A DNA stretch of 30,123 bases from a virus (IMGVR_UViG_3300032295_003038:1-30123), one strand, 5' to 3'. Positions 14,390-30,123 are shown, counted from the first letter of the stretch. The notes: generated from the letters alone by a model not told the origin. Translations and numbers: made by a program.

Positions 14390-14905
14390 TTATCGAATTA
14401 AATCTGATACGGTACCGAGGAAAGAACCGTTCCATTTAGATTTTGTTATTGTTACTTCCTGAGATCCGCCAAGATCTGAGGACTTCTTAATTGCAGTCTC
14501 TGATTCTACTGCATCGACACGCTTTGTTACACCATCAATCGTGCTCTTGATATCTGCTACAGCATTGCTTAATGCTGTGTGTTGTTCTGCCAACTCTGTG
14601 ATTCTAACTTCTACAGCCTTGCTGAAATTTTCAACAGTTGACTTAATTTCTGTCACCTGTGCAGCATTTGACTCTGTAGCTTTAGCTAGAGTTTCTGAGA
14701 AAAAGCCTTTTAGATCGCCCATCATCTTTGCAAAATCAGGTTCATCAACCTCAACTTCTGATACATCGGCTGCTTTTTCGAGAGAATCGGCAGAAGCGTC
14801 TGCTGCTGGTGCAGCATCTACGTCAGCAGGTGCTTCTTCAGCAACTACTAGTGTTTCTTCGGCAATAGCTTCTGCAGCTACTACATCTTTTTGTACATCT
14901 GACAC
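14390..14905 (-). CDS. Nested in-frame scaffold protein (171 aa) from an internal start
   Basis: AAGGAGGT followed 6 nt later by an in-frame GTG (14903-14905), exactly where the acidic/coiled-coil region begins. Confidence 0.65.
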   Translation of the reverse strand: MSDVQKDVVAAEAIAEETLVVAEEAPADVDAAPAADASADSLEKAADVSEVEVDEPDFAKMMGDLKGFFSETLAKATESNAAQVTEIKSTVENFSKAVEVRITELAEQHTALSNAVADIKSTIDGVTKRVDAVESETAIKKSSDLGGSQEVTITKSKWNGSFLGTVSDLIR

Positions 14906-15694
14906 TTCATTACCTCCTTCTACGTTTGCCTGTTTTGCAATTTTTTGTGTTTCAGGCAACGGTAATCTTGACTTCTTAAATGAATCAAGAATCTTATCTA
15001 TTTCGTTTGATTTGTTTACATCTGAACTTTCGACCCAACCAATTAGTGTTGCTGGCTTTCCAGAAACTGGAGAGTCGAATGTCTTCTCTGTTGACATAAA
15101 TACAGAGTCACTTTCTTCACAATAAAAAATATTTTCTGTTACGGTTTCTGCTGCCATTCCTTTAAATACAAGCTGGCCATTCATTTTAGAAATTGAAAGA
15201 ACATTGCATAATTCATTTGCTGGTGAATCAACTATTGATAACTCCATTAAGTCATATCCCTTAATGAATCTTACCTGTTGTCCTGTTGCTTTGTTGACTT
15301 CATTATCTGATTCTGTAATCTTTCCGCCGATTGAAAATCCTGTAAGTGTGCCATCTAAACATTTTTCCCATGTATCATTTGCACCTTTTGATACATATAC
15401 GTCTACATAAATTCCATTAAAGAAACCCTTTGAGATTGGATCGTAATAAGTTTCTGGTCTAAATGAAAGCATCTTGCCGACTGCAAGCGGTGTGTGCATC
15501 TCACGAATATTTCCACGGAAACTTTCAAATGCTTTTAAGCTAGCTTCTGATGTAACTACATCGCCAGTTTGATCTACGTTATCTAGTGTTGCAAAACCTG
15601 ATACGGTTCTCTTCTCACGGTTTACCTTTGTAAAAGGAACCGATAGCTGTATGTTTTCACCATTGGAAGACCAATGTGACTTTTCAATATTCAT
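14390..15694 (-). CDS. Prohead maturation protease fused to C-terminal scaffold
   Basis: VSGFAT..VDQTGD, NIREMH (His), GFSIGG (Ser), ELSIVDSPAN: HK97-type prohead protease motifs. Acidic Ala-rich coiled-coil C-terminus. Start moved to ATG 15694 because the TTG at 15730 is part of the -35 box. Confidence 0.9.
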   Translation of the reverse strand: MNIEKSHWSSNGENIQLSVPFTKVNREKRTVSGFATLDNVDQTGDVVTSEASLKAFESFRGNIREMHTPLAVGKMLSFRPETYYDPISKGFFNGIYVDVYVSKGANDTWEKCLDGTLTGFSIGGKITESDNEVNKATGQQVRFIKGYDLMELSIVDSPANELCNVLSISKMNGQLVFKGMAAETVTENIFYCEESDSVFMSTEKTFDSPVSGKPATLIGWVESSDVNKSNEIDKILDSFKKSRLPLPETQKIAKQANVEGGNEVSDVQKDVVAAEAIAEETLVVAEEAPADVDAAPAADASADSLEKAADVSEVEVDEPDFAKMMGDLKGFFSETLAKATESNAAQVTEIKSTVENFSKAVEVRITELAEQHTALSNAVADIKSTIDGVTKRVDAVESETAIKKSSDLGGSQEVTITKSKWNGSFLGTVSDLIR

Positions 15695-15701
15695 ATGCTT
15701 A

Positions 15702-15730
15702 ATTTTATACTCGTACGCATCAAAAGGCAA
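15702..15730 (-). promoter_or_regulatory. Promoter for protease/capsid, probably giving a leaderless mRNA
   Basis: TTGCCT-17 bp-TAAAAT, 7 nt before ATG 15694; no SD in between. Confidence 0.7.
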
Positions 15731-15747
15731 ATAACAGTTGAGTAGGT

Positions 15748-17328
15748 CTAGTCAACCTGTCTGCCGTCGCCTTTTGCATTTCTGCCTTCTCCTGAATTAT
15801 CTGGGGAAGTTGCGCTTCGGTCCTGAGTTCTTTTTCTGCTATTTGTGGCTTGGGCTGTAATTTCTGCTGCATCTTCAGCTTTTAAATCAACCATCTCGTC
15901 CCCGCCATCAACGGGAACCATGCCCTTTCTAATTCTAACTTCATTAGGGGTAATGACCTTCATTCTTAAATATCTTTCATCAATTTTAGATTGAGTGTCT
16001 TCATCTGTAAGAGTGAGCTGATTAAATTTAATTAACAAAGCATCTGTTTTCTCTTCAATAATTTTATTTAATATTTTCTCCAAAATCATCTGTGCTGGGG
16101 CACAAACCTGCTCTCTAAATGTTTTATCAGCATCACGGGCTACGGCCAAATTAACACCCTCTGGAGTTCCAAGTTTATTAATAGGAACACGGTGAGCAAG
16201 CAATATTTCATCTCTATTTGCTTGTCTATATTTATTAAATGAGGAGTCTTGAGTATTTGCCTCAACTGGCTCCATTTTAAATTCAACCTTTGAATCTGGA
16301 GTATCTGCTGGAAGTGGGACATATAGAGATCTATGATTCTTTCCTTTTAGCCCAACCTGGAAAAATTCTAATAACTTTCTTTCTGCTTCAGGAGAAAGCT
16401 TTGCCCCTTTTACTGTTACTATATATCTTGGCACCGCTTTATTTTCAAAATAATCAAGATTGTACTTTGCCGCAAACTCATTACCAGCAAGGGCATTTGT
16501 TGCTGCCACAATATCTGGTATGCCATAATAATTATTTGTTGGAGTATATTTTTTTAAATGAATAACTTCATTTGGTCTATCTGTAATTCCTGCAATCGGA
16601 TTTTCTGTATCTGAGTCTCCAAAGTTTCTAAAGAATACAGCCTTACCGTAAAGCAGCTGAATGAACCCATCACGTAAGCGACGAACTCTCATTGTCTTTG
16701 CTGGAATGTGACCAATATAACCAATGTTTCCACTTGTTGTTCTTCCAATTTCAATGTAGCCGTTTCCAGTTACTTCTAAGTCTGTATACGCCTTTTTTAG
16801 AGTTTCAATAAACAACTCTTCCTCATTTGTTTCATCTAGCCAAATGTTTAGGTCTTGACGCAATCTATTTAGCTTCTTACGTGCACGCTCTAATTGCTTA
16901 TCATCAGTTATTGAATCAAATGCTTCATTTGTTTTTCTTGTCTCAACAAAGTCATAGCCTAGGCCTACAATGTTTGAAACCTTTGCGTTTACCGCAGAAT
17001 AATTATATGTAGAAAGCTCATAAACTCTTGAAAGATAATCTAAGTTATACGGTGGCTCGATTAAGTCGAACATAGCATAGCCAGTAATTGCTTGTGCTAA
17101 AAGATTTTGCTGTGTTCCAGTTCCATCTTGACCAACAAATCTTTTAGAAAACTCTCTATTCATCTTTCTTCTAAAAGAAGTACTTAGTCCGCCAACTTTT
17201 TTTAATGCGTCAACATCTATTGAAAATGGATCATTGTTTGTTACAACTTCTTTATTGAGCAGTGCCCAATCCATCGCATTTGAAATATTTATATCGCCAT
17301 TAGATGTCTCGTCATTAATAAATTCCAT
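15748..17328 (-). CDS. Portal protein (PBSX/HK97-like)
   Basis: DLEVTGNGYIEI, NEVIHLKKY..NNYYGIP, YFENKAVP, ILLAHRVP, ITPNEVR motifs; located upstream of the protease. Confidence 0.93.
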   Translation of the reverse strand: MEFINDETSNGDINISNAMDWALLNKEVVTNNDPFSIDVDALKKVGGLSTSFRRKMNREFSKRFVGQDGTGTQQNLLAQAITGYAMFDLIEPPYNLDYLSRVYELSTYNYSAVNAKVSNIVGLGYDFVETRKTNEAFDSITDDKQLERARKKLNRLRQDLNIWLDETNEEELFIETLKKAYTDLEVTGNGYIEIGRTTSGNIGYIGHIPAKTMRVRRLRDGFIQLLYGKAVFFRNFGDSDTENPIAGITDRPNEVIHLKKYTPTNNYYGIPDIVAATNALAGNEFAAKYNLDYFENKAVPRYIVTVKGAKLSPEAERKLLEFFQVGLKGKNHRSLYVPLPADTPDSKVEFKMEPVEANTQDSSFNKYRQANRDEILLAHRVPINKLGTPEGVNLAVARDADKTFREQVCAPAQMILEKILNKIIEEKTDALLIKFNQLTLTDEDTQSKIDERYLRMKVITPNEVRIRKGMVPVDGGDEMVDLKAEDAAEITAQATNSRKRTQDRSATSPDNSGEGRNAKGDGRQVD

Positions 17329-17329
17329 T

Positions 17330-17671
17330 TTACCTTAAGCCCCTTAATTTTTTCATTTCGTCTTTGTGATTACCAATATCAAGGGGGTCTGGAACCAATC
17401 CCCAGTCTAATCTTTTTTTCTGATACTCAAATTCTTCATCATCAATTTTACGTCTTCCAGAAAGGAATTTAGGCTGACCTTCATGAATTCCATATGAACG
17501 AACTTCTCTTGCAAGGGCATCCATTCTAGATCTATTTCCTTTTTTAGATGTAATAGAAAGGAAGTTTCCGTCGTCGTCACCAATCCATCTTCCGTCTGGC
17601 ATTTCCCATACGTATATGCCAAGAGTAGTTTCCTCTTCTAGCATTTTGGTGTTTATTGTTTTGATATCCAT
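17330..17671 (-). CDS. Hypothetical protein preceding the portal
   Basis: 113 aa ORF ending 1 nt before the portal start; has its own promoter-like element upstream. Confidence 0.75.
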   Translation of the reverse strand: MDIKTINTKMLEEETTLGIYVWEMPDGRWIGDDDGNFLSITSKKGNRSRMDALAREVRSYGIHEGQPKFLSGRRKIDDEEFEYQKKRLDWGLVPDPLDIGNHKDEMKKLRGLR

Positions 17672-17680
17672 AAGACTTTT

Positions 17681-17709
17681 ATTTTACCATTCTTTAGCAC
17701 ATAAGTCCA
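17681..17709 (-). promoter_or_regulatory. Promoter upstream of the hypothetical/portal genes
   Basis: TGGACT-17 bp-TAAAAT with extended TGn, 9 nt before the ATG. Confidence 0.55.
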
Positions 17710-17735
17710 GCTTTTTGTTACACCTTGGTACAAAA

Positions 17736-19493
17736 TTAAATACTTTTAACCACTATCCAGTCATAATCATGCACTTGATAGGCATTTTCTGTCAATGATA
17801 TTGACGTATCTTCTGCCAAGGTGGATGGCCTTTCCGTATAAAGAGAATAGTGCTCTAGCGCTAATGTTGAGCTAAATGCTGATGGGTATATTGCTATATT
17901 CTTATATAGATTTCTTGGACCAGAATTTGACCATGTTCCATTAGTTACTTTAACATTAAACCATATTTGAGTGGAGATTGCTGAGGATAAAACTATAACA
18001 ATATGATATAGTTCGTCTGTATCCATAAATGAATTTATATTAGTGGCAGTGGTTCTATTTACCCCATTTACATATATTGCTGATATTCCGCTTTTTGTAA
18101 CCGCCCCAGTATTATTCCATGAATAATATGCTGAATCATGGTAGAAAAGATAGTTGGCAGAAAGACTTATTGGAGTAAAGAACATCTCTAGTGTCTGAAC
18201 ACTCATTAATGTATTTATCGGGAATCCAGAATCATATGGCCTAATTCCATTATTTTTGTTTCTCATAAGAATTGGGTAATTATCTGAAGATAAATCATAA
18301 TCCCACAATGCTAGGTTTGACTCTTCTGGCTCAATGTCTTCTCCATGATTATCTGCAAACAATAACTTGGTTGAATAAAAATTAAAAGACAATGAATAAA
18401 GCTTTGGAAAAAACTTTGTTATGTCCGAGCTGTTTAAAGTTATTTTTACATATAAAACTCTATCTTCTGCAAAGGATCCATCTCCGTATACATAGCCTGG
18501 AATTGCATCTCCATTAGAGCATGGATCATAATTTATTCCATCTGTTCCAATTGCTACTGATACACCTTTTGTTCCGCTCCATTCAACTTTTGAGGACATA
18601 AAAGATATGGCACTTGGCACTGAAAATATATCATACAAGACTACTTCATTTAAATCGGTATCAACAGTTATATAATCTTCAGTATCCTGATGATACAAAC
18701 CTTCTGCTTGAAACTGATTCCATTTTTTATTATACGGGTAAGAATAAGAAAATGTTTTTTTAATTGATCTGTCAGATAAACTAAATAAAACCCCTCCATC
18801 TGGTCCCGCTATTTGTATTGGTGCAATTCCACTAAATAAATTAAAATGCGATTTGGCTTTTTCTTGAGTCAAAGCATATCTATATACGGCTGGGGCATCA
18901 ACAATAAATGAATCTAGAGAACTGGAGGTTGGACCAATTTTTGGGAAAAAGGAGTCGTTGGTAAAAGTATACTTATCATAAAATATTGAACCAGCTCTTT
19001 CTCCATTTATGAATAAGCTGATTGAAGTTGGGGTATAGGTTGCACATATATGCGAAGACTGATTTATTGAAGGAAGTCTAAAGTCTAGTCTTTTATTTTC
19101 TAATAAAAAAACAATGTTGCCGTCTTCGTAATAAATTCCTATGTCGTTTGCATCATCTGCAAAAATTGGAGTAAGGGTGGTAGAAGATATTTTTGGATAA
19201 ACCCAGCACTCTAATGTAAAGTCATTGTCTGAAAAATATTTAGTAGCCAGTCCTCCAAGAGCGGAATCTCCATTGTAGTCATATTCTATGGGAAGCTCAA
19301 TTGAATTTAAGTTATTAATTAAAGATCCCGAAACCCCGCCAGAGACTAGGGGAAGTATATCTGTCGTTAAAGATCCTATGTAGGTTCCATTATTTCCAGA
19401 ACCAGATGTATCAAAGGCGGTTGTGCCAGAAGATTCATCCAATGGCCAGAAGGCTATCGGGTTATCTTTTATAACCTGCAATTGATACGACAT
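17736..19493 (-). CDS. LamG/concanavalin-A-like domain protein, probable minor virion protein
   Basis: DNPIAFWPLDESSGTTAFDTSGSGNNGTY, FTLECWV, HICATY, SLFINGE, AVYRYAL; a second LamG-like region near the C-terminus (YHIVIV, IAIYPSAFS). Confidence 0.8.
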   Translation of the reverse strand: MSYQLQVIKDNPIAFWPLDESSGTTAFDTSGSGNNGTYIGSLTTDILPLVSGGVSGSLINNLNSIELPIEYDYNGDSALGGLATKYFSDNDFTLECWVYPKISSTTLTPIFADDANDIGIYYEDGNIVFLLENKRLDFRLPSINQSSHICATYTPTSISLFINGERAGSIFYDKYTFTNDSFFPKIGPTSSSLDSFIVDAPAVYRYALTQEKAKSHFNLFSGIAPIQIAGPDGGVLFSLSDRSIKKTFSYSYPYNKKWNQFQAEGLYHQDTEDYITVDTDLNEVVLYDIFSVPSAISFMSSKVEWSGTKGVSVAIGTDGINYDPCSNGDAIPGYVYGDGSFAEDRVLYVKITLNSSDITKFFPKLYSLSFNFYSTKLLFADNHGEDIEPEESNLALWDYDLSSDNYPILMRNKNNGIRPYDSGFPINTLMSVQTLEMFFTPISLSANYLFYHDSAYYSWNNTGAVTKSGISAIYVNGVNRTTATNINSFMDTDELYHIVIVLSSAISTQIWFNVKVTNGTWSNSGPRNLYKNIAIYPSAFSSTLALEHYSLYTERPSTLAEDTSISLTENAYQVHDYDWIVVKSI

Positions 19494-19514
19494 ATAATTA
19501 TTATACCTTAAATA

Positions 19515-20168
19515 TTATTCAGTGCCATCTGAGTAATACGGACGAGTTCTATTGTGATACCAGTTTGGCAAAGAATACCTAGTTCCTTTAGTAACAGCAT
19601 CTACCTCATGCACGTATACAAAATTGGATGGGAAAAACATAATGCTGCCAGATTCTGGCTTAATGTCTATCCCAGCATGTGGAAATCTAATATTGCCACC
19701 TTCGTAGTCATCGTTCAGATAAAGAAGTGCTGATAAAACACGACTACTTATTCCGTGATCAGAATGTGCTGGAAGGAAGCCGCTTTCCTTGTACTTTAAA
19801 AGATGCATTGTTTTTTCTCTAGACTTTATATTTTTTTCTGCGTATGGATAAAGAGTAAAGTAGTGATTAAGCGCTGTTTCTAATGCATCAAAAAGCTCAA
19901 AAGATATCTCATACTGCTCCTTATAGAACATATCATTTTTGTCTATGTCTTCTGGTTTTGGTAAAAACTTTTGCCAACAAAAAACTGTTTTTTCAGATTT
20001 TCCATGATCATAGTCCCAGGCTTTCCATCCTTGTACAAATTGAGATGCGTATGAATCTGCCTCACTTCTTTTTTGCTCTAGGCTTTCAATTTTATCTATA
20101 ATAGACTGTGGATCTTTTATTATTTCATTATACTTAACAACGCCAAGCGCAAGCTCTTCATATCTCAT
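19515..20168 (-). CDS. 2OG-Fe(II) oxygenase, prolyl-4-hydroxylase-like
   Basis: LLKY, H-x-D (HSD), YLNDDYEGG, distal His (YVHEV) and 2OG-binding RYS. Confidence 0.9.
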   Translation of the reverse strand: MRYEELALGVVKYNEIIKDPQSIIDKIESLEQKRSEADSYASQFVQGWKAWDYDHGKSEKTVFCWQKFLPKPEDIDKNDMFYKEQYEISFELFDALETALNHYFTLYPYAEKNIKSREKTMHLLKYKESGFLPAHSDHGISSRVLSALLYLNDDYEGGNIRFPHAGIDIKPESGSIMFFPSNFVYVHEVDAVTKGTRYSLPNWYHNRTRPYYSDGTE

Positions 20169-20713
20169 TAGCAGCCCTCAAAATCTGGATCTTCAAATTC
20201 TTTTTGCGTTGATTGCATAAAAAGAGCGGTGTACCTATTGCCAGACTTAATTTCTGATACACCGTGCAGGTAGTCATAGTCATTTCCAGGAAAGAAAACT
20301 GCAGAATATTTTTTAGGCTTTAAGTAAAAATTTTGTTTAGGGAAATAGATTTGCCCACCCTCATACTCATCATTAAGGTATATAACAGTACTAAATTCTA
20401 TGAATGGCTCTTTATCTATCGCATCTATGTGCGGATCTCCGCTTTGTCCAACAGACCAGCCAGAGCCAAAAGACTTTGTAATAATAACATCCTTTTCGGC
20501 ATTAAAGAAATCTTTTTGAATAAGATTAGATTTTTTTGCATAGGACCTCAATATGTCAATAACCCTTTTATTATAAGGAAAGGCTGTTCCACCATTTCTT
20601 TCTGAATAATAATCTGGATAAGAATTTATTTCTGAAGGGTTTTGTATTTCTGAAATTAAAGACATTGCATCTTCTTCGGTTATAAATCCTTCAACAACCT
20701 TAATTTTTGTCAT
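20168..20713 (-). CDS. 2OG-Fe(II) oxygenase, prolyl-4-hydroxylase-like
   Basis: HID, YLNDEYEGG, YLHGV, RYT. Start placed at ATG 20713, which overlaps the upstream stop (ATGA). Confidence 0.88.
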   Translation of the reverse strand: MTKIKVVEGFITEEDAMSLISEIQNPSEINSYPDYYSERNGGTAFPYNKRVIDILRSYAKKSNLIQKDFFNAEKDVIITKSFGSGWSVGQSGDPHIDAIDKEPFIEFSTVIYLNDEYEGGQIYFPKQNFYLKPKKYSAVFFPGNDYDYLHGVSEIKSGNRYTALFMQSTQKEFEDPDFEGC

Positions 20714-21360
20714 AAGTGTACCCATAAATCTTGAACGTATCCTTCTTTAGAAACCACTGAAAGCGGAGTAATATCATAAGCTATTGTTATTCTTGGCTCA
20801 GTAAATTCCCAAGAGCCTATACCGTGAGGGTGACCAGTTTCTGAAACTATAGCTCTGTTATTTATATTAATATTTTCAAATGGGTGCTCGTTGTTTATCT
20901 TGTAGTAGGTTGAGCCTGGCTCAGCATTAACACAGTAGTATCCGTGGAAAAGTGGTGCTCCAAATCCATTTGAATGATCGTGATAAAAATTTGAATCATC
21001 TAAATTAACAACCTTTGGCACTCCGTCATTGCTTTCAACGTTAAACCATCCGTGAAGCATAAACTCTTGGGATTCAAAATCAATGCCATAATATTCGCAA
21101 GCCTCTCTAGTCATGTCTCTTAATGCGGACTGAAGATTATAAATTTCTTTATTATGGAAATGGAAAATATTAAAAAAAGAATCTATTCTTTGTGGATTAT
21201 AATTAGAAAAATAAGACTTTGGGGCCTTTATTAAATCGCTAACTGGTAAGCCTCTTACTCTGCCAGACTTTAAATCCTCCTGCTTTAAAAGCAAATATTT
21301 ATTCAAAGAGTCCAGATCATTGTCAAGATGTCTTTCAAAAAACTTTTGTTCTTTTTTCAT
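20710..21360 (-). CDS. Putative 2OG-Fe(II)/cupin oxygenase (HxH...H type)
   Basis: GWFN, HDH, FHGYYCV, HPHG, RITIAYDI; clear paralog of 22855-23508. Confidence 0.72.
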   Translation of the reverse strand: MKKEQKFFERHLDNDLDSLNKYLLLKQEDLKSGRVRGLPVSDLIKAPKSYFSNYNPQRIDSFFNIFHFHNKEIYNLQSALRDMTREACEYYGIDFESQEFMLHGWFNVESNDGVPKVVNLDDSNFYHDHSNGFGAPLFHGYYCVNAEPGSTYYKINNEHPFENININNRAIVSETGHPHGIGSWEFTEPRITIAYDITPLSVVSKEGYVQDLWVHL

Positions 21361-21368
21361 AGTTTATC

Positions 21369-22103
21369 CTAGTCTATTACATTTGTTTTATTGATATATC
21401 TCTCTCCGAGAATACTATCAAATTTAGATTTTCTTATATTATAAGAAACATCATTATATTCGTACTTATTTTTTTTAAGGCCCACTTCTTCTGCTATTGC
21501 ATTATAGTTATGATTTAAATTAAATGGCACATAGTCTACTGTATTTAAATCTATTGTTTTGTCATCTACTATTTTACTTGAAACCTCATATACAGTCAAG
21601 CCGTCTTTTATTGCATGGTAGTACACGTATTCCTGCTCTCCATTATACTTCGCAAATGCTGGGGCTTTTATTTTTAAAGCAGAGTCCTTTTTGGCAAATA
21701 TAAAATTCCTATTTATTCTTGTGCCTACTGAAAAATCATCCTTGGCCAAATTGCTTTGAGTAAGCAAGCAGCTTTCATTTTTATCTAAAAACAATATCAA
21801 ATTATTTAAATGCTCTATATCAATTTTTGTCTGGTCTCCTATCTGCAAGTAATAGTCGAACTTAGATGTCAATATAAAATGTTTTTTATATTCTATAGGA
21901 CTAGATATTGAATCCCATGGAATATGAATGTAATTTAAAAAAAATCTATTAGGCTTATATTTGTCTTCTTTGTTAATACTGCTTTGATCAATAACTGTAA
22001 GCATTACATTGTAGTTATTAGAAATTTTTTCTACCAAACTAAATAATTCATCTAAATTTTTCTTTTGATAAGAGTAACAAAATACGCCAATATTTTTTTT
22101 CAT
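21369..22103 (-). CDS. Divergent GT-A glycosyltransferase, GT60 (Hyp-GlcNAc transferase)-like
   Basis: VIDQS, DYYLQIGDQT (compare GT60 YxLQIDSH), NFIFA, YNGEQE (compare F/Y-x-GEE). Confidence 0.55.
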   Translation of the reverse strand: MKKNIGVFCYSYQKKNLDELFSLVEKISNNYNVMLTVIDQSSINKEDKYKPNRFFLNYIHIPWDSISSPIEYKKHFILTSKFDYYLQIGDQTKIDIEHLNNLILFLDKNESCLLTQSNLAKDDFSVGTRINRNFIFAKKDSALKIKAPAFAKYNGEQEYVYYHAIKDGLTVYEVSSKIVDDKTIDLNTVDYVPFNLNHNYNAIAEEVGLKKNKYEYNDVSYNIRKSKFDSILGERYINKTNVID

Positions 22104-22858
22104 ATCTTAGACAAATAACTTTTTGAAAGGTCGTGTGTGCTATTTTTAATTCTGTTTATTAATATATCATAGTTTTCTTTAATATTATATGGCAGATTTT
22201 TATTTTCATGAATTGGAACGCTATAAATTCCAGTAATATCATGTTTATTTCTATCTATAATACATGTGTTTGAAGGTCTAGTATAAATTGGGATTCCATT
22301 TTCAATACAGGATAGGAGAATGTCTTCTTCTTCCCCAAAATAGACTAGGTAGGATGGTAATGATATTTTTTTAATTACTTCAGATTTGCCAAAGATAAAG
22401 TCTCTATCTATAAAATCTGCCTTTAAAAAGTATGGGCCTCTAGTATATTTTTTTTCTAGGTAGCCATTAACCTTACTATATGACATTTTGCCTTGTCCAG
22501 AAACAATTGCTTCAGGAAACTCTAAAAGAAAATTAATTATTTTTTTGTTCCAGCTGACCGAATATGTTGTAGAGTCAGACATAAATGCAATATAGTCGGC
22601 AGAAGACTTTTCTAAAAATTCTTTTTTGTATAGTATTGGTGATTTTGAAGAAAGAATATCCACTTTATTATAGTTTATGTTTATATGGCTGTGTTCTTTT
22701 TCATAAAAGCTTTCAGTTATATGGTTTTTAGACTGATCAAAGACTGTTATATTTATTAAATATCTAGGGTCACAGTTTGTAACCATACTTCTAACGCTTT
22801 TAAGAAGATGCTCGTTCGAGTAGCTATAAATAAATACATCTACCGATTGTTTGATCAC
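22100..22858 (-). CDS. Divergent GT-A glycosyltransferase, GT60-like
   Basis: VFDQS, DYIAFMSDSTTYSVSWN, DFIFG, YFGEEE; paralog of 21369-22103; GTG start overlaps the upstream stop. Confidence 0.55.
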   Translation of the reverse strand: MIKQSVDVFIYSYSNEHLLKSVRSMVTNCDPRYLINITVFDQSKNHITESFYEKEHSHININYNKVDILSSKSPILYKKEFLEKSSADYIAFMSDSTTYSVSWNKKIINFLLEFPEAIVSGQGKMSYSKVNGYLEKKYTRGPYFLKADFIDRDFIFGKSEVIKKISLPSYLVYFGEEEDILLSCIENGIPIYTRPSNTCIIDRNKHDITGIYSVPIHENKNLPYNIKENYDILINRIKNSTHDLSKSYLSKI

Positions 22859-23508
22859 AACAAAGGAGTCCAGTGCTGTGGCGCAGCCTTTGCATTAATT
22901 AGGGCTGCTAATGGCATTATGTCGTAGGCAATTGTAACTCTAGGACCGTCCCAATCCCAGTCTTCCATTGCATGAGGGTGACCCATTTCTGAAATAATCA
23001 TTCTGTTATTTTTGTTTTTGTTAACAACTGTTTCTCCAAATACCTTATAGTGAGTATTAGATGGCTCTGCATTAACACAGTAGTATCCGTGGAAATAGGG
23101 AACCCACGGACCGCCATGATCGTGCCAGTCTAGCTTTCCAACCTTTGCATAATTTATGTTAAACCATCCTTGAATCATGTATTGCTGAGAATCAAAATCT
23201 ATTCCGTAATATTGGCAGGCCTCTTTTACTGTGTCAGATACTGATTTAAATAATTTATATATGGCAGGATGATAGAATTGAAAAACATTATACTCTCTCC
23301 ATTTAATTGTTGATATGCTAGAGGATTGCAGCCAAGCATCTTGGTCATTAACTGCAGTAATATTTTTTAACTCTAGATTTTCCATCTTATAATATTGCTG
23401 TTGCATAAAATTTGCTAAATCATCTAGATCATTGTCTAAGTGTCTTTCAAAAAACTTGTGTTGATGCCCAGTAGGATGTGGGATAGATTGAATTGGAAAG
23501 TCTTCCAT
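22855..23508 (-). CDS. Putative 2OG-Fe(II)/cupin oxygenase (HxH...H type)
   Basis: GWFN, WHDH, FHGYYCVNAEP, HPHA, RVTIAYDI; AAGGAG RBS; TGGTACACT extended -10 at 23532-23540. Confidence 0.72.
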   Translation of the reverse strand: MEDFPIQSIPHPTGHQHKFFERHLDNDLDDLANFMQQQYYKMENLELKNITAVNDQDAWLQSSSISTIKWREYNVFQFYHPAIYKLFKSVSDTVKEACQYYGIDFDSQQYMIQGWFNINYAKVGKLDWHDHGGPWVPYFHGYYCVNAEPSNTHYKVFGETVVNKNKNNRMIISEMGHPHAMEDWDWDGPRVTIAYDIMPLAALINAKAAPQHWTPLL

Positions 23509-23549
23509 TTAAAGCTCCTTTGTTCCGTATAAGTGTACCATTTTTTTTA

Positions 23550-24281
23550 TTATTTATAAACTTTTCTTTGCCAAGCATAACCCTTATAGTAAGAAAATAT
23601 CTTTGACCTTCTTTTTTCTTCTTTTATTTTATTTTTCCATATTTTTTCTTCAGAAAACTCTATTTTCATTTCCCATGAATCTCTCTTTATTGGAATTATT
23701 TGAAATAAAGGGGTTCCTTTAGGTATGGTTCCAGTAAATCCCCTCTTAACAAAAAATGATATAAATACTGGCAATCCCCATACGTCAGAATCAACAATAC
23801 CAGATAGAACTGTAAAGGGAAGGTCATGCCTATTCAATGGATGTGTTATTAATACAGAATAGTCTTTCGGCGTTTCGTAGTACCAATGCATTTTAAATCC
23901 AAAATGAACTGGGTGATGCTGAAAAGGTACTGCCACATCGATCATAGGCCTTTTGTCGCACACCATAACATCGTTTTCCCAGGATAGGATTGGAAACCCT
24001 TCTTCATCTTCAGAAATATGAAGGTCGTCTGTTAAAACATAAAAATATCCAGAGCTCATGGCATCAAAAAATGGCATGCATAGTTTTGTTGAAGATGCGC
24101 TGCCATCTGTGCCTCTATCATTAATTGGGTGAAGGTCTTTCATTTTATTTGAATAATAAAATCTAGAAAGCTTTTTATACCAGTCTGGTATCATCGATAT
24201 CGCAGGAACTGGGGGCAAGGTTGCGTGATCTTTTGGATCTGCTGTTGCAGTAAAAATTATTTCTTTATTTCTTTTTATCAT
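23550..24281 (-). CDS. DUF6065-like protein of unknown function
   Basis: PVPA..IPDWYK, CMPFFDAMSSGY, TPKDYSVLITHPLN, SGIVDSD, IPKGTPLFQIIP; paralog of 24926-25639. Family name is from recall and needs an HMM check. Confidence 0.55.
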   Translation of the reverse strand: MIKRNKEIIFTATADPKDHATLPPVPAISMIPDWYKKLSRFYYSNKMKDLHPINDRGTDGSASSTKLCMPFFDAMSSGYFYVLTDDLHISEDEEGFPILSWENDVMVCDKRPMIDVAVPFQHHPVHFGFKMHWYYETPKDYSVLITHPLNRHDLPFTVLSGIVDSDVWGLPVFISFFVKRGFTGTIPKGTPLFQIIPIKRDSWEMKIEFSEEKIWKNKIKEEKRRSKIFSYYKGYAWQRKVYK

Positions 24282-24903
24282 ATTCCCTCTTTAAATTCTT
24301 ATAGACTTTTTTATTTGGATAAATATAAATGTCATACATATATGTTCCTCTTGGTATTATGGTGCATCCATTTTCAACTAAATGCTCTTCATTTTTTAAA
24401 AAATAAAAATCTAATAAATCTGAGTTTTTTATTTCTTGAGTTGTGCCTTTTGTAAATTTACCAGAAAAATATTTAAAATAAAAAGAGTTACTATCACTTT
24501 TTATAAAGTAATCCATATCTTCATCAATTATCCAGGGCATGAAAGCCCTAAATGAATCTTTAACTAAAAACATATCTTTGTTTTGCTCTTCATATTCTGA
24601 TGGATAAAACTGTCTTAGCCAGGGCTTATCTACGCAATAAACTTTGTTTTTATAATTTACAATATAAATGTCTGAATAAGAATACTGCCTAATTACAATT
24701 TCTTTTTTTGTTAAACTAATTATCTCTGGCTTTACCCCAAAATGGTGAACATACATGTTTATTGGTTTTAATAAAGATTTAGCATACATATTATCTACAT
24801 CTTTCCATTTAACCCACTCTCCTGGAAGAGAAGATAGGGATATAATTTCAGAGAACAATCTGTTTTTCATTTGTAGCCATGACTTTGAATATTGTGGAGG
24901 CAT
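24265..24903 (-). CDS. Hypothetical protein, possibly a degenerate DUF6065-like paralog
   Basis: 212 aa AT-rich ORF; FMPWIID and IIPRGTYMYDI echo the W and IPKGTPLFQI motifs of its neighbours. Confidence 0.45.
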   Translation of the reverse strand: MPPQYSKSWLQMKNRLFSEIISLSSLPGEWVKWKDVDNMYAKSLLKPINMYVHHFGVKPEIISLTKKEIVIRQYSYSDIYIVNYKNKVYCVDKPWLRQFYPSEYEEQNKDMFLVKDSFRAFMPWIIDEDMDYFIKSDSNSFYFKYFSGKFTKGTTQEIKNSDLLDFYFLKNEEHLVENGCTIIPRGTYMYDIYIYPNKKVYKNLKREYDKKK

Positions 24904-24925
24904 ATGTATAATCCTTAAAAGAAAA

Positions 24926-25639
24926 TTACTTAAATGTTTTCTTTGACCAAAACTTCATCCTGTAAGCATTTTCAAATACAGTTCTTACAGCTGAAGTTAT
25001 ACCTTTAATCATATCATCTGAGTTTTCATCTTCTAGGTAGTTTGCTTCCCAGTCATTTCTTTGAAAAGGAATAACTTGCAACATTGGGGTTCCCTGCTTT
25101 ATGAGACCAGAAAATCCTTTTTTAACAAAAAACGACAGGTATCCATCTGAAGGATATTTGTCAGTATCTACTACTCCAGGTATGGCAAAAAGCGGTGAGT
25201 TATCAGAATGCATAGGCTGAATAAATAGGCAGCTAAATCCAGGAGGAGTTTCGGCAATCCACATGGGATGAATTCTTATAATGTCCTCATGGTATCCGTC
25301 TGGAATTGGATAGTGAAGAATTTGTTCTTTAATATGAGTTGTTAAAAGCTGGCCATCAAGTTCTGGTGTAGACAGCTTAAATGTTACTCTTTCTCCAGTT
25401 GCGTCTATAAATATATCCATTGGTATTTTTAAGTAATATCCAAATGTCATGGCGTCAAACACTGCCTGACATTTTTTTACAGTTAGGCCATACTCGCCTT
25501 TGTCTCTAGACAATCCGTCTACGTATCCTGGTTGTTTTTTCCACCAATTTGGTAAATTGCTTGCACTTTGTACTGGCTCAGGCTTTGGAAAAACTTTTCT
25601 ATAAACTCTAGACCTAGGAATAAATTTGATTTGATTCAT
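24926..25639 (-). CDS. DUF6065-like protein of unknown function
   Basis: LPNWWK, TVKKCQAVFDAMTFGY, TPPGFSCLFIQP, PGVVDTD, IKQGTPMLQVIPF; TGTGGTATGAT extended -10 lies 6 nt before the ATG. Confidence 0.55.
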   Translation of the reverse strand: MNQIKFIPRSRVYRKVFPKPEPVQSASNLPNWWKKQPGYVDGLSRDKGEYGLTVKKCQAVFDAMTFGYYLKIPMDIFIDATGERVTFKLSTPELDGQLLTTHIKEQILHYPIPDGYHEDIIRIHPMWIAETPPGFSCLFIQPMHSDNSPLFAIPGVVDTDKYPSDGYLSFFVKKGFSGLIKQGTPMLQVIPFQRNDWEANYLEDENSDDMIKGITSAVRTVFENAYRMKFWSKKTFK

Positions 25640-25660
25640 GAATTAATCATACCACAATAG

Positions 25661-26191
25661 TTAAAAAATTGGAATCCATTGATTGGGCATTTGTGAATAT
25701 AAGGATTCTGCTACAGATACATTAAAACAAAGGGTTCTGGACTCTGTTTCAGCAAGTATTTTTATTTTAGAACTAGAATTAAAAATATTTATATCGCCAG
25801 GATTTAATAATATAACTCCACCACTTTCTTCTTGTATTTCAATAGGCTTATCTGATAAATTAATAAATCCAAAAAACATATTAGTCATTACTGGGGAAAA
25901 TGAATTAAAGCTTTCATTTATTGAAGGTGTAATTAATTTTGATCTTATATAAAAATAGTTTCTTTCAAAAGACAGTCCTGAATCCTTGACATTAATTTTA
26001 ATATTTTCAATACATTTCTTAAACATTTTATAAATAGATGGGTCTGGTATCATAAATACCTCTAGATTTTCTACAAACTTTTTTTTATTTAATTTCACAT
26101 CAAAGTTTATGCCGCTATTTGCATCAAATGTCTCATAGGTGTTGTTTGCCAAGGCCGTGTCAATAACTTTATTTATATACTTAAGATTCAT
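25661..26191 (-). CDS. Cupin-fold protein, degenerate paralog of the HxH oxygenases
   Basis: IYKMFK, FFGFINL, LNPGDINIF, RTLCFNV, QWIPI align with IYKLFK, FHGYYCV, RVTIAYDI, HWTPL; the protein contains no His. Confidence 0.5.
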   Translation of the reverse strand: MNLKYINKVIDTALANNTYETFDANSGINFDVKLNKKKFVENLEVFMIPDPSIYKMFKKCIENIKINVKDSGLSFERNYFYIRSKLITPSINESFNSFSPVMTNMFFGFINLSDKPIEIQEESGGVILLNPGDINIFNSSSKIKILAETESRTLCFNVSVAESLYSQMPNQWIPIF

Positions 26192-26735
26192 TTATATAAT
26201 CACTTTCTGAATACCAATAGGCTGGTGAAACTGGGTCTCTGGTTGAATCCATTACCTTTTTATTTAAAGCTGGATCAATCTTCCAATTGGGTCTCCAGTG
26301 TGAATTTTTTCTTACCATATTTCTGTCTTTTTCATTTAAAGTTTTGCTTAGCGCCAAAGCCATCATGTCGTCGGCAATTGGTGTGGGATCATTTGGATAT
26401 GATGTACATATACCTGTTTTAAAATATAACAATGTTCTGGTTAAAGGCCCTAAACTTGAACCAATTCCCATTCTTCTATATCTATGAGATGTATAAGCTC
26501 TATTAAACTGTCCATCTTTTTGCCATGTTAGATATGCATCTGGAGTTTCATTCATTACTGTATTTGAATAAATAATTGTGCCTTTGGGATACATATCATT
26601 TATATATAGTGCACATATACCGCCGTGGCTGCTTTTTTCATCAAATATAGTAAATAGAATCCAAGATGATAGAAACTCTTTTGGATATTCAGTATAATCT
26701 AAAAATGCTTCGCCTTCTATAAAAACAGGAGTCAT
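26181..26735 (-). CDS. Putative GNAT-family acyltransferase
   Basis: AYTSHRYRRMGIGSSL matches acetyl-CoA-binding motif A (R-x-x-G-x-G). Confidence 0.6.
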   Translation of the reverse strand: MTPVFIEGEAFLDYTEYPKEFLSSWILFTIFDEKSSHGGICALYINDMYPKGTIIYSNTVMNETPDAYLTWQKDGQFNRAYTSHRYRRMGIGSSLGPLTRTLLYFKTGICTSYPNDPTPIADDMMALALSKTLNEKDRNMVRKNSHWRPNWKIDPALNKKVMDSTRDPVSPAYWYSESDYINES

Positions 26736-26746
26736 TTTTATTTATA

Positions 26747-28606
26747 CTAACTAGGATTTATTATATTCTCTACAGCTCTTATTCTTGCAATAAGACCCGC
26801 CTTTATTGAATCTTCGTTTTCAACTAGTTCGTATGGTTCTGAATTTAAAAGCATTACTGCTGTCCATGCAGACTGAAGATCACTTAAAGATTGTGTTTGT
26901 TCCAAAAGAGCAACTGCGTCTGAAGCCTCTTGTATGTATCTTTCTTCATTAACTACAGAGTCATAAAGAGCCATTAAAGCTTCAGTTAAATCTTCTCCTG
27001 GAGCAGTTACAGCATATTGCTTAATGTGTTCTAAAGGCTGAGAATCGTGAACAAGTATGTCTCCTTCAATAAAGAAAACATCATAAGGCTCTACGTTAAT
27101 ACAAACAACTAGCTCTCTTTGAGCTAAAACTTGTATAGAACTTATTGGAACCCAATCTAGTTCTGCTTGAGACCAAAGTAGGTCTGTATCTAGCATATCA
27201 GTAACTCTTTCAAATTTTACTACATCTATGCCATTCTCTTGTCTTTTTATTAAAATATAGTGTGTATCTGAAAACTTTGATCCATTTATAACATAAACTT
27301 CATCTACGAAATAGGCTGTTAGCCCCATTACTGTAGTTTCTTTATCTGTATTTACAGAAATGTTTGAGCTTGACCAACCGTATTGAAATGAATTTAAAGT
27401 AGATCCAGAATCTAAATCTGTAATATCAGCAGAATAAAGAACATCTCCAACTTTTAGGCTGATTGCTGGAACAAGTCCCTCTGGGTCTTTTAGCTTTATC
27501 AATGTATTTGAAGATACGGACTTATATCCCTTAACAAACGGCGTAAATCCAAATGGCGTGAATCCGAATGGCGTGAATCCGAATGGCGTGAATCCGAATG
27601 GCGTGAAACCGAATGGCGTGAAGCCAAAAGGTGTGAAGCCGAAAGGTGTGAAGCCGAATGGCGTGAAGCTAAATGGTGTGAAGCTAAATGGAGTTGTTGT
27701 AATTTGATTTGAGTTTGAAGATCTTGCTGAGGTTCCATTTGCATTTATTGCTTCAACATTAAAATACCAAACAAAGTTGTTTGCTTGTCCTGTAAAGTCA
27801 GCAGTAGTTCCTCCAGTATTTATTGAGTCTGGAGCATTTCCTCCGTTGTCAAAAACATTGTAGCTTGAGATTGCCTTTCCACCATTTGATGGAGCAGACC
27901 ATGATGCACGATTATTATTTTGACCGTTATTTACAGCAGATAATCCAGTTGGTGCTGCTGGAACTGTTGTGATTGTAACAGAAGCGGTTGCAGATGATGA
28001 TTCAGACCATCCATTTGCATTATAGACTCTACCAGTAAATGTATATCCAGTAGCAGAAGCCATTCCAGCTGGTGTAACTGGGCTAGACCCATTAGTGGTT
28101 TCAGACAATCCGCTTGGAGTAGCTCCATAATTTGATATTACTTTACCTCCAGTTGCACGAGATGTAACTGTAACAGTTGCTGATCCATTATTAAATGGTC
28201 TACCAGTTCCAACATCTACGGCAGAAACCGTTGGTGACTGTGGAACAGTTGTAACTACAAGTGGGGATGTCGCAGTTGTTGGAGCAGAATTTCCAGAAGC
28301 ATTTTTTGCTACAATTTTTATCTTTACATCGTTTCCTCCAGTTATTCCACCAAGTGTGTAGCTAGGAGTTGACGATCCTGTATTTACTGTAACTTCGGAA
28401 GCACAAACTCCTTGGTTGCATAATTCATAAATTACATCATAGCTAGTAGCTGCAGGAGAATCTGCTGGTAGTGTCCATGAAATATTAACCGCACCATTAG
28501 TATAAGACCTGTTAAGTCCAACATCTGTTACTGTTACATTTGTTACTGTTTTTGGTGCCAAGAAGTCGTTTGCCGACTGACTCATTCTACCTGCTTGCTT
28601 TGACAT
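26747..28606 (-). CDS. Fibronectin type III repeat protein with (TPFGF)n repeat, Hint domain and helical C-terminus
   Basis: Three FN3-like units (ISWTLP, YTFTGRVYNANGWS, SWSAPSNGGKAISSY..VEAINANGTS), repeat at aa 305-357, Hint domain at aa ~363-521; AGGGGA RBS. Confidence 0.85.
   Translation of the reverse strand: MSKQAGRMSQSANDFLAPKTVTNVTVTDVGLNRSYTNGAVNISWTLPADSPAATSYDVIYELCNQGVCASEVTVNTGSSTPSYTLGGITGGNDVKIKIVAKNASGNSAPTTATSPLVVTTVPQSPTVSAVDVGTGRPFNNGSATVTVTSRATGGKVISNYGATPSGLSETTNGSSPVTPAGMASATGYTFTGRVYNANGWSESSSATASVTITTVPAAPTGLSAVNNGQNNNRASWSAPSNGGKAISSYNVFDNGGNAPDSINTGGTTADFTGQANNFVWYFNVEAINANGTSARSSNSNQITTTPFSFTPFSFTPFGFTPFGFTPFGFTPFGFTPFGFTPFGFTPFGFTPFGFTPFVKGYKSVSSNTLIKLKDPEGLVPAISLKVGDVLYSADITDLDSGSTLNSFQYGWSSSNISVNTDKETTVMGLTAYFVDEVYVINGSKFSDTHYILIKRQENGIDVVKFERVTDMLDTDLLWSQAELDWVPISSIQVLAQRELVVCINVEPYDVFFIEGDILVHDSQPLEHIKQYAVTAPGEDLTEALMALYDSVVNEERYIQEASDAVALLEQTQSLSDLQSAWTAVMLLNSEPYELVENEDSIKAGLIARIRAVENIINPS
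27044..27520 (-). other. Hint (intein/Hedgehog-like) autoprocessing domain
   Basis: Block A SVSSNTLI, LKVGDVL, block B FSDTHYIL (His codon 27260-27262), blocks F/G VVCINVEPYDVFFIEGDILVHD followed by Ser; no homing endonuclease. Confidence 0.8.
27536..27694 (-). repeat. 15-bp coding tandem repeat: (TPFSF)2(TPFGF)8 TPF
   Basis: 10 full units plus a partial unit; differences between units are mostly synonymous third-position changes. Confidence 0.97.
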
Positions 28607-28630: not shown

Positions 28631-30123
28631 TTATAGTGCTAAATCGCCGAATACTAACCATCCAGCTGCAGTTTTCATTGCTGTTACAACTGAGTTTGTT
28701 GTTCTAAACTTCAAACCTGGTGTTCCAACAACTCCGTTTGTTGATTCAAACCGTGCACCAGTTGATGATTCCTGGTAGAAATCAATTGACTGTCCAGTTG
28801 AATATCCAGATGATGGAAGAGTAATTACTACTGCTCCAGTTAGAGGAATCAATTGATCTGCCCGTCCTGTTGCAAGTGAGTGGGCTCCTGCTGCTATTGC
28901 AGTTGGAATTGTGGTAATAGAAGGAACGCCAGCCTTTGTCTGTGTACCATCTGTAAATGCTACTCCAGATGCTGCAACTGTTACTGTTCCAGTAAATGTT
29001 GGATTTGCAATTGGTGCTTTTAGATTTACATTTGTAATTGTTTCGTATGTTGTAGAGGCTGTTGCTGTAGCAAGCTTGGCGTCTAACTGAGTCTGAATAT
29101 TTGATGATACGTTATTTAGGTATTGAAGCTCTGTATTTGAAACATCTCCAATTGTTGCAGAAGACGCTGTAAATCCAGCTACTTCTAAGTCATCTAATGA
29201 ACCTTGTGTAAAGTCTACTGTTGTTGAAGGCTCTGTTGTTACACCCTTAAATAACTTCCACTTGGCATCAGATACGTCTCTTACAAGACCTGCGTGCTTT
29301 GCTGCGCCATCATTGTATCCAACTACAAGACCAAGGTCAACTGTGTTTGCTGCATTTTGATGAGCAAGCTGGAGCATGTTATCTTCAATTGTAATAGATG
29401 TTGCTGATGCAGAAAAGTTTGTTCCGTTTACAGTAAAATCTCCGTCTACAACTAAGTTTCCGTCCATCTCTACGTTTCCTGTAAATGTTGCACCAGATAG
29501 TGAAGCTTTAGCTGCTAAATCTGTAGTTAAGTCTGCAATCTTAGACTGAGCAATTGCTGCTGAAGCATTAATGTCTGCGTTTACAATTGTTCCATCTGCA
29601 ATTTTTGCTGAAGTTACGGCGCTATCTGCAATTTTTCCTTCAGTAACTGCTAGATCAGCAATCTTTCCAGTAGTTACTGCAAGTCCACCGATTTCATTAG
29701 TTCCGACTGAGTCGTCACCCATCATTGATTGTGATATTGTGTTTGCAGGAAGAGTTACTGTTCCTGTAAATGTTGGTGAATCTAGATTTGCCTTAAGGTC
29801 AAGTGCTGTTTGAGTTGCAGCTGAAACTGGCTTGTTAGCATCTGAAGTATTATCAACATTTGCAAGACCTACTGAGGTTTTTGTTAGTGCTGCAACTGCT
29901 GTTGATACTGCTCCGTCCGCATAAGTTTTTGTTGCAAGTGCTGCTGTGTCAGCAATTCCGTGGACATTTGTAGTATCATCATTATGTGTTGATACTGCTG
30001 TTGCAATATCGGTTGCCACAGTTGCGCTTAATGCAAGGGCTGCTGTGTCTGCAATGCCGTGAACGCTTGTGGTGTCTGAAGTATGCATTGAAATTGCTGA
30101 TGCAATATCAGTTGCGACAGTTG
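28631..30123 (-). CDS. Tail-fibre-like virion protein, 5' end outside the window
   Basis: Frame stays open upstream of ATG 30088 (TVATDIASAISMH). Contains VHGIADTAALA repeats, VGLANVDNTSDANKPVS, KAxLxSPTFTGTVT repeats and 10-aa VTxxKIAD repeats typical of trimeric fibres. Confidence 0.8.
   Translation of the reverse strand, partial: TVATDIASAISMHTSDTTSVHGIADTAALALSATVATDIATAVSTHNDDTTNVHGIADTAALATKTYADGAVSTAVAALTKTSVGLANVDNTSDANKPVSAATQTALDLKANLDSPTFTGTVTLPANTISQSMMGDDSVGTNEIGGLAVTTGKIADLAVTEGKIADSAVTSAKIADGTIVNADINASAAIAQSKIADLTTDLAAKASLSGATFTGNVEMDGNLVVDGDFTVNGTNFSASATSITIEDNMLQLAHQNAANTVDLGLVVGYNDGAAKHAGLVRDVSDAKWKLFKGVTTEPSTTVDFTQGSLDDLEVAGFTASSATIGDVSNTELQYLNNVSSNIQTQLDAKLATATASTTYETITNVNLKAPIANPTFTGTVTVAASGVAFTDGTQTKAGVPSITTIPTAIAAGAHSLATGRADQLIPLTGAVVITLPSSGYSTGQSIDFYQESSTGARFESTNGVVGTPGLKFRTTNSVVTAMKTAAGWLVFGDLAL

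Follow-up and report, generated by a model that had tools for sequence, protein, structure and literature searches.

The main finding of this work concerns a 30,123-nucleotide stretch of viral DNA (IMGVR_UViG_3300032295_003038:1-30123, called here the window, in the sense of the whole stretch that was analysed). Positions 19,515 to 28,606 of the window hold the gene of a precursor protein with a Phe-rich repeat tract and a Hint domain, followed by a block of eleven genes containing a core of seven families, namely three DUF6065-like families, an HxH oxygenase, a glycosyltransferase (GT)-like family and two prolyl 4-hydroxylase (P4H)-like families. Comparison with related phages supports the conclusions that the repeat gene and its enzyme block constitute a recurring, swappable unit and that the repeat class predicts the enzyme system of a genome. 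The core marker, searched over 30 records, was found in 11 of 11 genomes with repeats other than the Pro-Pro (PP) class (Phe-Gly-type repeats, Pro-free ones included) vs 0 of 10 genomes with PP repeats, all at least 90% complete, the threshold set for this contrast; four of the 11 had been picked with the core already known, a selection that counts against the interpretation given next. We consider the chances about even that the core modifies the low-complexity, Phe-rich tip of a virion appendage and that the Hint domain removes itself. The system is real and widespread, and it would be a form of virus-encoded protein tailoring that possibly involves a new enzyme class.

The precursor protein and the enzyme block

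The precursor gene and its parts are as follows.

26747..28606, minus strand: precursor of 619 amino acids, with three FN3 domains, Phe-rich repeat, Hint domain and helical tail
27695..28561, minus strand: three fibronectin type III (FN3) domains, about residues 16-304 (Pfam fn3, model, Foldseek)
27536..27694, minus strand: repeat tract, residues 305-357, two TPFSF, eight TPFGF and TPF
27044..27520, minus strand: Hint domain, S363-D521, with Ser1, block B S-x-x-His, and a His-Asp end followed by Ser
26759..26986, minus strand: C-terminal helical region after the Hint domain, of variable length among homologues (model)

The FN3 domains were recognised by Pfam (fn3, E 3e-9), by a structural model with predicted local distance difference test (pLDDT) values mostly >85 and by Foldseek matches to FN3 tandems (E 5e-15). 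The repeat tract is disordered in the model (pLDDT <50 for residues 310-360), its periodicity score is 45.5 vs a maximum of 6 among 300 shuffles, and its ten repeat units are encoded by eight distinct DNA units. An earlier note on this DNA had described an FN3 protein with ten TPFGF units fused to a Hint domain; both domains were confirmed, but the uniform (TPFGF)10 tract was not, the units being mixed as listed.

Residues 363-521 were modelled confidently as an all-beta domain, and profile searches matched them to the gp41-1 intein (6riz, E 1.6e-7) and to the bacterial intein-like (BIL) domain 2lwy (E 2.1e-7). S363, H449 and D521 are invariant across 72 close homologues, and the block B His is missing from several Cys-type Hint relatives. 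A canonical splicing intein was considered and rejected: the domain ends in His-Asp and not in Asn or Gln, and splicing is unlikely because the terminal Asn is replaced by an invariant Asp (D521) and the C-terminal part varies from 7 to 161 residues. As judged from these sequence features, the Hint domain likely cuts itself off at its N-terminus by means of Ser363 and the block B His.

The eleven genes of the block, in the order in which they follow the precursor, are listed below, 2OG standing for 2-oxoglutarate.

26181..26735, minus strand: GNAT-like protein (a weak call), accessory, travelling with the neighbouring gene at 25661
25661..26191, minus strand: degenerate HxH-family protein without His ligands, accessory
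24926..25639, minus strand: DUF6065-like protein 'a', predicted dUTPase fold, core; K55, C57, D62, D158, D160, R194 and Y226 invariant
24265..24903, minus strand: degenerate DUF6065-like protein without Cys, core marker
23550..24281, minus strand: DUF6065-like protein 'b', core
22855..23508, minus strand: HxH...H double-stranded beta-helix oxygenase-like protein (PF13759-like), core
22100..22858, minus strand: GT60-related GT-A protein without DSH motif
21369..22103, minus strand: second GT60-related protein without DSH motif, core family
20710..21360, minus strand: second HxH...H oxygenase-like protein
20168..20725, minus strand: P4H-like 2OG/Fe(II) oxygenase, subfamily 0c, core (phrog_61, E 3e-18)
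19515..20168, minus strand: P4H-like 2OG/Fe(II) oxygenase, subfamily 0d, core (PF13640, E 1e-15); its stop is the edge of the swapped block

The window holds the whole core at one site, plus the GNAT-like pair and duplicates. The earlier description of a single-strand block of overlapping or near-abutting genes among virion genes agrees with the confirmed coordinates, with the intergenic gaps of -17 to +41 nt between the 12 minus-strand open reading frames (ORFs) and with the Pfam and PHROG matches of the neighbours. The individual enzyme assignments fared unequally. The two P4H-like oxygenases are borne out by the PF13640 and phrog_61 matches and by the HxD...H...R pattern (the 2OG/Fe(II) triad plus Arg), which by eye is intact in both; weak sequence matches to P3H1 and to bacterial prolyl hydroxylases were also obtained (E 4e-5 to 8e-5). 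Among the three supposed HxH cupins, the proteins at 22855 and 20710 keep the HxH...H ligands and the one at 25661-26191 has lost them; the family reaches 0.96 in the ESM Atlas to PF13759 clusters, with no Pfam match in 41 members. Two of the three DUF6065-like genes are clear relatives (phrog_7084, E 1e-38), and the third, at 24265-24903, is a weak, Cys-less one (hhalign probability 44%, E 2e-4); the window proteins fall under the PF19541 cut-off, while their homologues carry PF19541 and the Cys motif is common with canonical members. The two supposed GT60-like glycosyltransferases do align with GT60, but GDQ and SDS occupy the DSH position in them, and with the GT60 profile PF11397 the protein at 22100 scores 13.6 bits vs a cut-off of 21 and that at 21369 gives no match; DSH is present in 1 of 50 members of the window GT subfamily vs 19 of 20 intact GT60 proteins of these phages. 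The GNAT call retains RRMGIG, which resembles the acetyl-CoA motif A; Pfam gave no match for the window protein, and six of the 17 members of its family match PF00583 weakly, with E under 0.1. Profile searches of the PDB with the HxH, GNAT and GT families gave no significant match.

The model of the protein at 24926-25639 (pLDDT 93.5) assigns the dUTPase fold to the DUF6065-like proteins: every one of the 35 Foldseek rows listed belongs to the trimeric dUTPase/dCTP deaminase superfamily, and a structure comparison gave Z 9.9 and a root-mean-square deviation of 3.2 over 120 aligned residues. With the dUTPase motifs as we take them to be defined, motif III (D-x-D-x-Y) and the Gln of motif IV are retained, and motifs I, II and V are unrecognisable. 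Five residues (Lys55, Cys57, Asp62, Arg194, Tyr226) do not vary across 121 sequences, and His102 hardly does. The family comprises 4261 clusters at 50% identity.

Repeat class and enzyme system among related phages

Relatives of the precursor were pooled from 80 of 89 confirmed IMG/VR loci and from later viral scans, with the precursor N-terminus and the enzymes as queries, to a total of 367 loci. Of these, 63 had no precursor in the stretch and 304 had one; after 191 incomplete or duplicate loci were set aside, 113 distinct complete loci were retained, to which the following counts refer. The precursor always stands behind the same fibre-type gene. Its tract contains 31-52% Phe plus Tyr in 113 of 113 loci, and its lack of charge is partly by construction, as the score that defines the tract penalises charged residues. 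The tracts fall into the classes (FGA)n, which is nearly Pro-free, FGFSP/VFGFSP, FGFTP and FFxPP/FFPP, and unit length and register differ inside single tracts. The Hint domain is present in 84 loci and absent from 29, and 17 of the 29 Hint-less proteins terminate within 8 residues of the end of the tract, so that they mimic the predicted cleavage product. The repeat-Hint module was also seen fused to other carriers in the same genomes, among them PASTA-domain proteins and proteins of about 920 amino acids (L043:4065-5093; a 944-aa ORF in L040; the P0056 type).

The adjacent block ranges from one to eleven genes. Any DUF6065-like gene adjoins the precursor in 95 loci, an intact GT60 in 2 and the full window-type set in only 11, and in another lineage the set lies ~50 kb away; the 11-gene cassette of the earlier note is not a dedicated one. 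Swapping is visible at the nucleotide level: the window and contig L251 share 94% DNA identity over 14504-19517, with the match ending at the cassette edge, and the backbone closest to that of the window (L039/L251) carries an FFxPP repeat and a different enzyme set.

All 41 Pro-Pro loci have intact P4H-like genes next to the precursor, as do 32 of the 45 single-Pro loci, but none of the 27 Pro-poor ones has. The corresponding correlation between Pro content and the number of adjacent P4H genes (Spearman 0.90) was discounted after whole-genome searches and tree-aware tests. Each of 21 near-complete genomes of the family holds 2-13 2OG/Fe(II) oxygenases, PF13640 genes numbering 4-7 in (FGA)n, 2-7 in FSP/FTP and 8-13 in PP genomes. 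The tests used a portal-based tree of 82 rows, 31 of the 113 loci being left out as they had no portal or small conserved gene.

The contrast in core content given above crosses both backbone clades. G066 and G067, which belong to the other clade and have FGFTP repeats, possess the core; G028, a PP-repeat genome of the ribonucleotide reductase-adjacent clade, lacks the core at the remote site, a loss that linkage cannot explain. One (FGA)n genome, 89% complete, gave no match to the core marker. PP-repeat phages carry another enzyme battery in place of the core: all 54 canonical-DUF6065 phage loci that reach the fibre gene (of 80) have a PP-repeat precursor, and the DUF6065-like genes of PP blocks form one supported clade across backbones. 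The earlier note suggested testing whether enzymes and repeat co-occur and co-vary in phage and metagenome assemblies; repeat class does track the enzyme system, but the same core, P4H-like and GT-like genes included, is retained with almost Pro-free repeats.

The core is divided between two sites in a complementary manner, which ties it to the repeat locus. In nine of nine genomes DUF6065-like 'a' lies either beside the repeat gene or in a remote block, never in both. Where it lies beside the repeat gene (six genomes), the P4H-like pair is found in the remote block (one block lacks 0d) together with the degenerate copy, 'b', HxH and GT-like; where HxH genes alone adjoin the repeat gene (three genomes), 'a' is in the remote block and HxH is absent from it. 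Among the precursor records without an adjacent DUF6065-like gene, 3 of 16, including both that are at least 90% complete, have the pair ~50 kb off, and the rest are fragments. An ORF of ~474 amino acids that follows the remote core (L465-L473) is, we assume, carbamoyltransferase-like; a link between it and the core was rejected, since among five genomes it occurs in two core-less ones and is missing from two that bear the core.

Further genes were noticed in these phages. A second repeat-tipped gene lies upstream of a lysozyme-like gene (L165:1-1932, L023:1-561 and the first ORFs of L016, L019 and L066). Its repeats are of the TVN/QNT, TIN/TID, VTPA or PPVV type; in many cases it has a Hint of its own, which in L165 is encoded by a separate ORF, and P4H-like, GT60, GT61 or DUF6171 neighbours of its own. 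Many Pro-Pro blocks end with proteins bearing a Peptidase S74 chaperone and with collagen-like (Gly-X-Y) proteins (L071:16505-17620, L323, L329), which could be further hydroxylase substrates.

A possible mechanism and the alternatives

We hypothesize that the FN3 protein is a virion appendage, a location suggested by synteny only, and that Ser363 with the block B His would cleave N-terminally, without splicing, to leave the repeat as the appendage tip. The DUF6065-like proteins, with their Cys/His/Asp set, would act as a dedicated factor for low-complexity peptides, probably as a trimer that includes the degenerate paralogue. The HxH oxygenases may target a residue common to all Phe-Gly-type repeats, Phe being the candidate, and the P4H-like pair may hydroxylate Pro in F-x-P units here or in other Pro-rich proteins of the phages, with the motif-less GT and cupin copies as presumed non-catalytic partners. 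Tip chemistry would then consist of hydroxyls added by oxygenases and a putative DUF6065 reaction rather than Skp1-type glycosylation, and Phe-Gly-type and Pro-Pro-type tips would be served by two mutually exclusive systems.

Several results weigh against this proposal. Adjacent genes swap together whether they interact or not, and the local P4H pattern is partly a matter of gene position, because PF13640 genes are as numerous in (FGA)n genomes as in FSP or FTP genomes, with the numbers given above. In the tree-aware contrasts, Pro content and adjacent P4H changed in the same direction in three of seven pairs, in the opposite one in one and not at all in three (p 0.6); PP repeats went with at least three P4H genes in three of three contrasts, too few for significance (p 0.25); and a post hoc contrast of FSP with HxH was not significant (p 0.06). 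The remote-loss case is one genome only, G028. In 32 of 80 loci found with the DUF6065-like alignment the core came without a precursor in the fetched stretch, although in both near-complete genomes among them the precursor stands elsewhere, at its usual site. Among the cultured phages of INPHARED, none has a gene related to that of the precursor. Finally, in 26 of 80 loci the gene right after DUF6065-like 'a' is that of ribonucleotide reductase, the homologue of cyanophage S-RIM4 follows ribonucleotide reductase without a repeat neighbour, and canonical dUTPase (PF00692) is absent from seven of seven near-complete genomes of the phage family.

The last three observations belong to the best surviving alternative, in which the substrate of the core is a different one (nucleotides or nucleotide-sugars, a protein of the host, or other Pro-rich surface proteins of the phages), the core merely occupies a recombination hotspot after the fibre genes, and the repeat is the unmodified hydrophobic tip of an adhesin. 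We take this to be a serious possibility, though we doubt it. A nucleotide-related role, which the earlier note named as a refuting case, is a fair possibility because the DUF6065-like proteins share the dUTPase fold, with the motif III and motif IV residues described above; ribonucleotide reductase or thymidylate synthase adjoins them in three unrelated virus groups; the core is frequently ~50 kb from the repeat gene; and proteins with TP, VTP or PPV repeats are also present in these phages. On the other hand, the loss of recognisable motifs I, II and V is accompanied by a new conserved Cys/His/Asp set, one genome does not need three paralogous dUTPases, and core presence tracks repeat class, while the carbamoyltransferase-like neighbour does not track the core. 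HRTV-5, unlike the phage family, encodes a canonical dUTPase besides its DUF6065-like gene.

Homologues in other hosts bear on the same question. In bacteria the orthologues are accompanied not by nucleotide genes but by an ORF with a Ser/Asn repeat, a sigma factor and a gene of protease-like type. In the best 80 of 325 bacterial loci, alphaproteobacterial where named, an ORF with (SNSS/SNSN)n lies within 1 kb of the DUF6065-like gene in 76, two of the others being cut by the contig end and two having it further off. This ORF is small and encodes a protein that begins with a hydrophobic stretch and carries the (SNSS/SNSN)n tract, with acidic residues, at its C-terminus; the protein is likely exported, to judge from signal peptides assessed by eye. 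No P4H-like or GT-like match was present in the 45 loci inspected of these 80. The alphaproteobacterial unit (for example L243:8894-9259 and L207:7980-8711) also has genes that by eye are extracytoplasmic function (ECF) sigma-like, anti-sigma-like and subtilase-like (L171-L250). Cultured-virus homologues come from a few cyanophages and from haloarchaeal viruses, the latter with 49 records. HRTV-5 and HSTV-2 have the gene between a tail module with a Gly-rich adhesin, whose role there is described in the available part of PMC8651126, and a nucleotide-metabolism gene; in these cultured hafunaviruses it is convergent with the adhesin end (L461:5896-8857, L462:5893-9158). Two signals therefore compete for the role of the DUF6065-like proteins, low-complexity peptide neighbours and nucleotide genes.

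A bolder form of our proposal, which we regard as tentative and rather improbable, is that the DUF6065-like proteins of phages, alphaproteobacteria and haloarchaeal viruses constitute a novel peptide-modifying enzyme class that has the dUTPase fold as its scaffold and is iterative on low-complexity tracts, for instance by mass-silent epimerisation. The targets would be the Phe-rich virion tip uncapped by the Hint domain, the exported Ser/Asn repeats and the Gly-rich adhesin; the invariant Cys/His/Asp set would carry out the processing, and phages would combine the DUF6065-like proteins with oxygenases.

The route suggested in the earlier note, with P4H-like enzymes hydroxylating the TPFGF prolines and GT60-like enzymes adding N-acetylhexosamine (HexNAc) to give a glycan-coated appendage, now appears unlikely. 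It has a real precedent in Skp1 (available part of PMC6939170), the P4H-like active sites are intact with matches to P3H1 and bacterial prolyl hydroxylases, and the GT genes align with GT60 and retain the GEE stretch; but DSH is missing from both window proteins and from 49 of 50 of their subfamily, intact GT60 genes occur in 2 of 113 blocks, the GT and P4H pair is kept alongside nearly Pro-free (FGA)n repeats, and this GT is absent from 41 of 41 blocks of PP-repeat phages, the richest in Pro. Release of modified pentapeptides from a multi-core precursor, like that of RiPPs (peptides synthesized ribosomally and modified post-translationally), was the other outcome envisaged and found no support. 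Perfect tandem units, clustered tailoring-type genes and a self-processing domain would suit it, as would the likeness of the bacterial Ser/Asn-repeat proteins to small exported precursors near a protease-like gene; yet none of the eleven block genes matched a protease, transporter or RiPP recognition element (RRE), the units have neither leader nor spacer and vary in length and register, and further large carriers, PASTA-type proteins for example, bear the same repeat-Hint module as a fusion, so that we find it very improbable. Hypermodification of phage DNA bases by oxygenases and GT-like proteins, of the TET/JBP plus glycosyltransferase type, is hardly credible: the nucleotide-type fold within the block and a weak Tet_JBP match at 19515 (E 0.0015) point that way, but this match is far under the cut-off and weaker than that to PF13640, structure matches are to prolyl hydroxylases, and the block stands in a virion module and varies with the repeat.

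Known systems and genomic setting

Virus-encoded modification has a precedent in the prolyl 4-hydroxylase and Pro-rich viral repeats of the chlorovirus PBCV-1 (PMC3634087, available part). In both systems the virus encodes a 2OG/Fe(II) oxygenase for which action on repeats in viral proteins has been proposed or shown, but PBCV-1 is a eukaryotic virus with a single enzyme and Pro-Ala-Pro-Lys repeats, whereas the window belongs to a bacterial phage with a multi-enzyme core, Phe-rich repeats sometimes without Pro, and a Hint cap. In mycobacteriophages, glycans are placed on the capsid and on tail tube C-termini (Freeman 2023, as cited in the available text of PMC12619734); there, as we propose for the window, phage genes modify the phage's own virion proteins, although in the window the GT-like genes are without the GT60 motif, and most prominent are the oxygenases and the dUTPase-fold proteins. 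The PhyA/Gnt1 (GT60) pathway of Skp1 in Toxoplasma and Dictyostelium (PMC6939170) likewise brings P4H-like and GT60-related genes together; it differs from the window system, which lacks DSH and has a core independent of repeat Pro, in modifying one proline and not a tandem-repeat substrate. Cyanophage clusters of oxygenases and glycosyltransferases have been assigned to polysaccharide or metabolite decoration (PMC7824862, available part).

The Hint domain of the window resembles BIL and Hedgehog-type domains, whose mechanisms are presumed here, in being endonuclease-free and near the C-terminus, with a nucleophile at position 1 and a block B His; it differs by its Ser1, its His-Asp end, its dispensability in 29 of 113 loci and its constant position directly after a low-complexity tract. 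The DUF6065-like proteins share with trimeric dUTPase/dCTP deaminase the core fold, the motif III hairpin and the motif IV Gln, but differ in their length of 237 amino acids, insertions, C-terminal helix, Cys57/His102/Asp62 and up to three paralogues per block. No such system is described in the available parts of PMC12801897, PMC3556154, PMC8651126 and PMC6939170, and a literature search, which lay outside most subscription papers and supplements, returned no description of it and no paper naming DUF6065.

Phages encode many 2OG/Fe(II) oxygenases, for most of which no substrate is known, and the proposed tailoring, if true, would give this large unstudied enzyme family a testable substrate. 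As the repeat is short enough to be synthesized and the seven-family core is defined, the question can be put to the test in vitro. The DUF6065-like proteins gain a fold, candidates for the catalytic residues, and rhizobia and haloarchaeal viruses as test systems that can be cultured. RiPP-like tailoring would also be extended to virion tips, which may explain host-range variation of aquatic actinophages.

The record of 30 kb, estimated to be 26% complete, is a minus-strand virion module of an uncultured tailed phage; Pfam and PHROGs identified its genes for the tape measure, tail tube, capsid, protease and portal. An actinobacterial host is likely because WhiB is encoded by five of five near-complete relatives. 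The precursor and its block are flanked on one side by a LamG gene and these virion genes and on the other by the following gene.

28631..30088, minus strand: fibre-type gene, 3' part, which precedes the precursor in this phage family (PHROG tail-fibre matches, synteny)

The enzyme block (19515-26735) has 32% G+C vs 39% for the precursor, the capsid block and the tape measure gene. The tape measure protein (2-8488) exceeds 2800 amino acids and has CHAP and LysM domains close to its C-terminal end, and a small gene of the head module (12817-13212) gives a SAP/Rho-N-like match, below the cut-off, at the N-terminus of its product.

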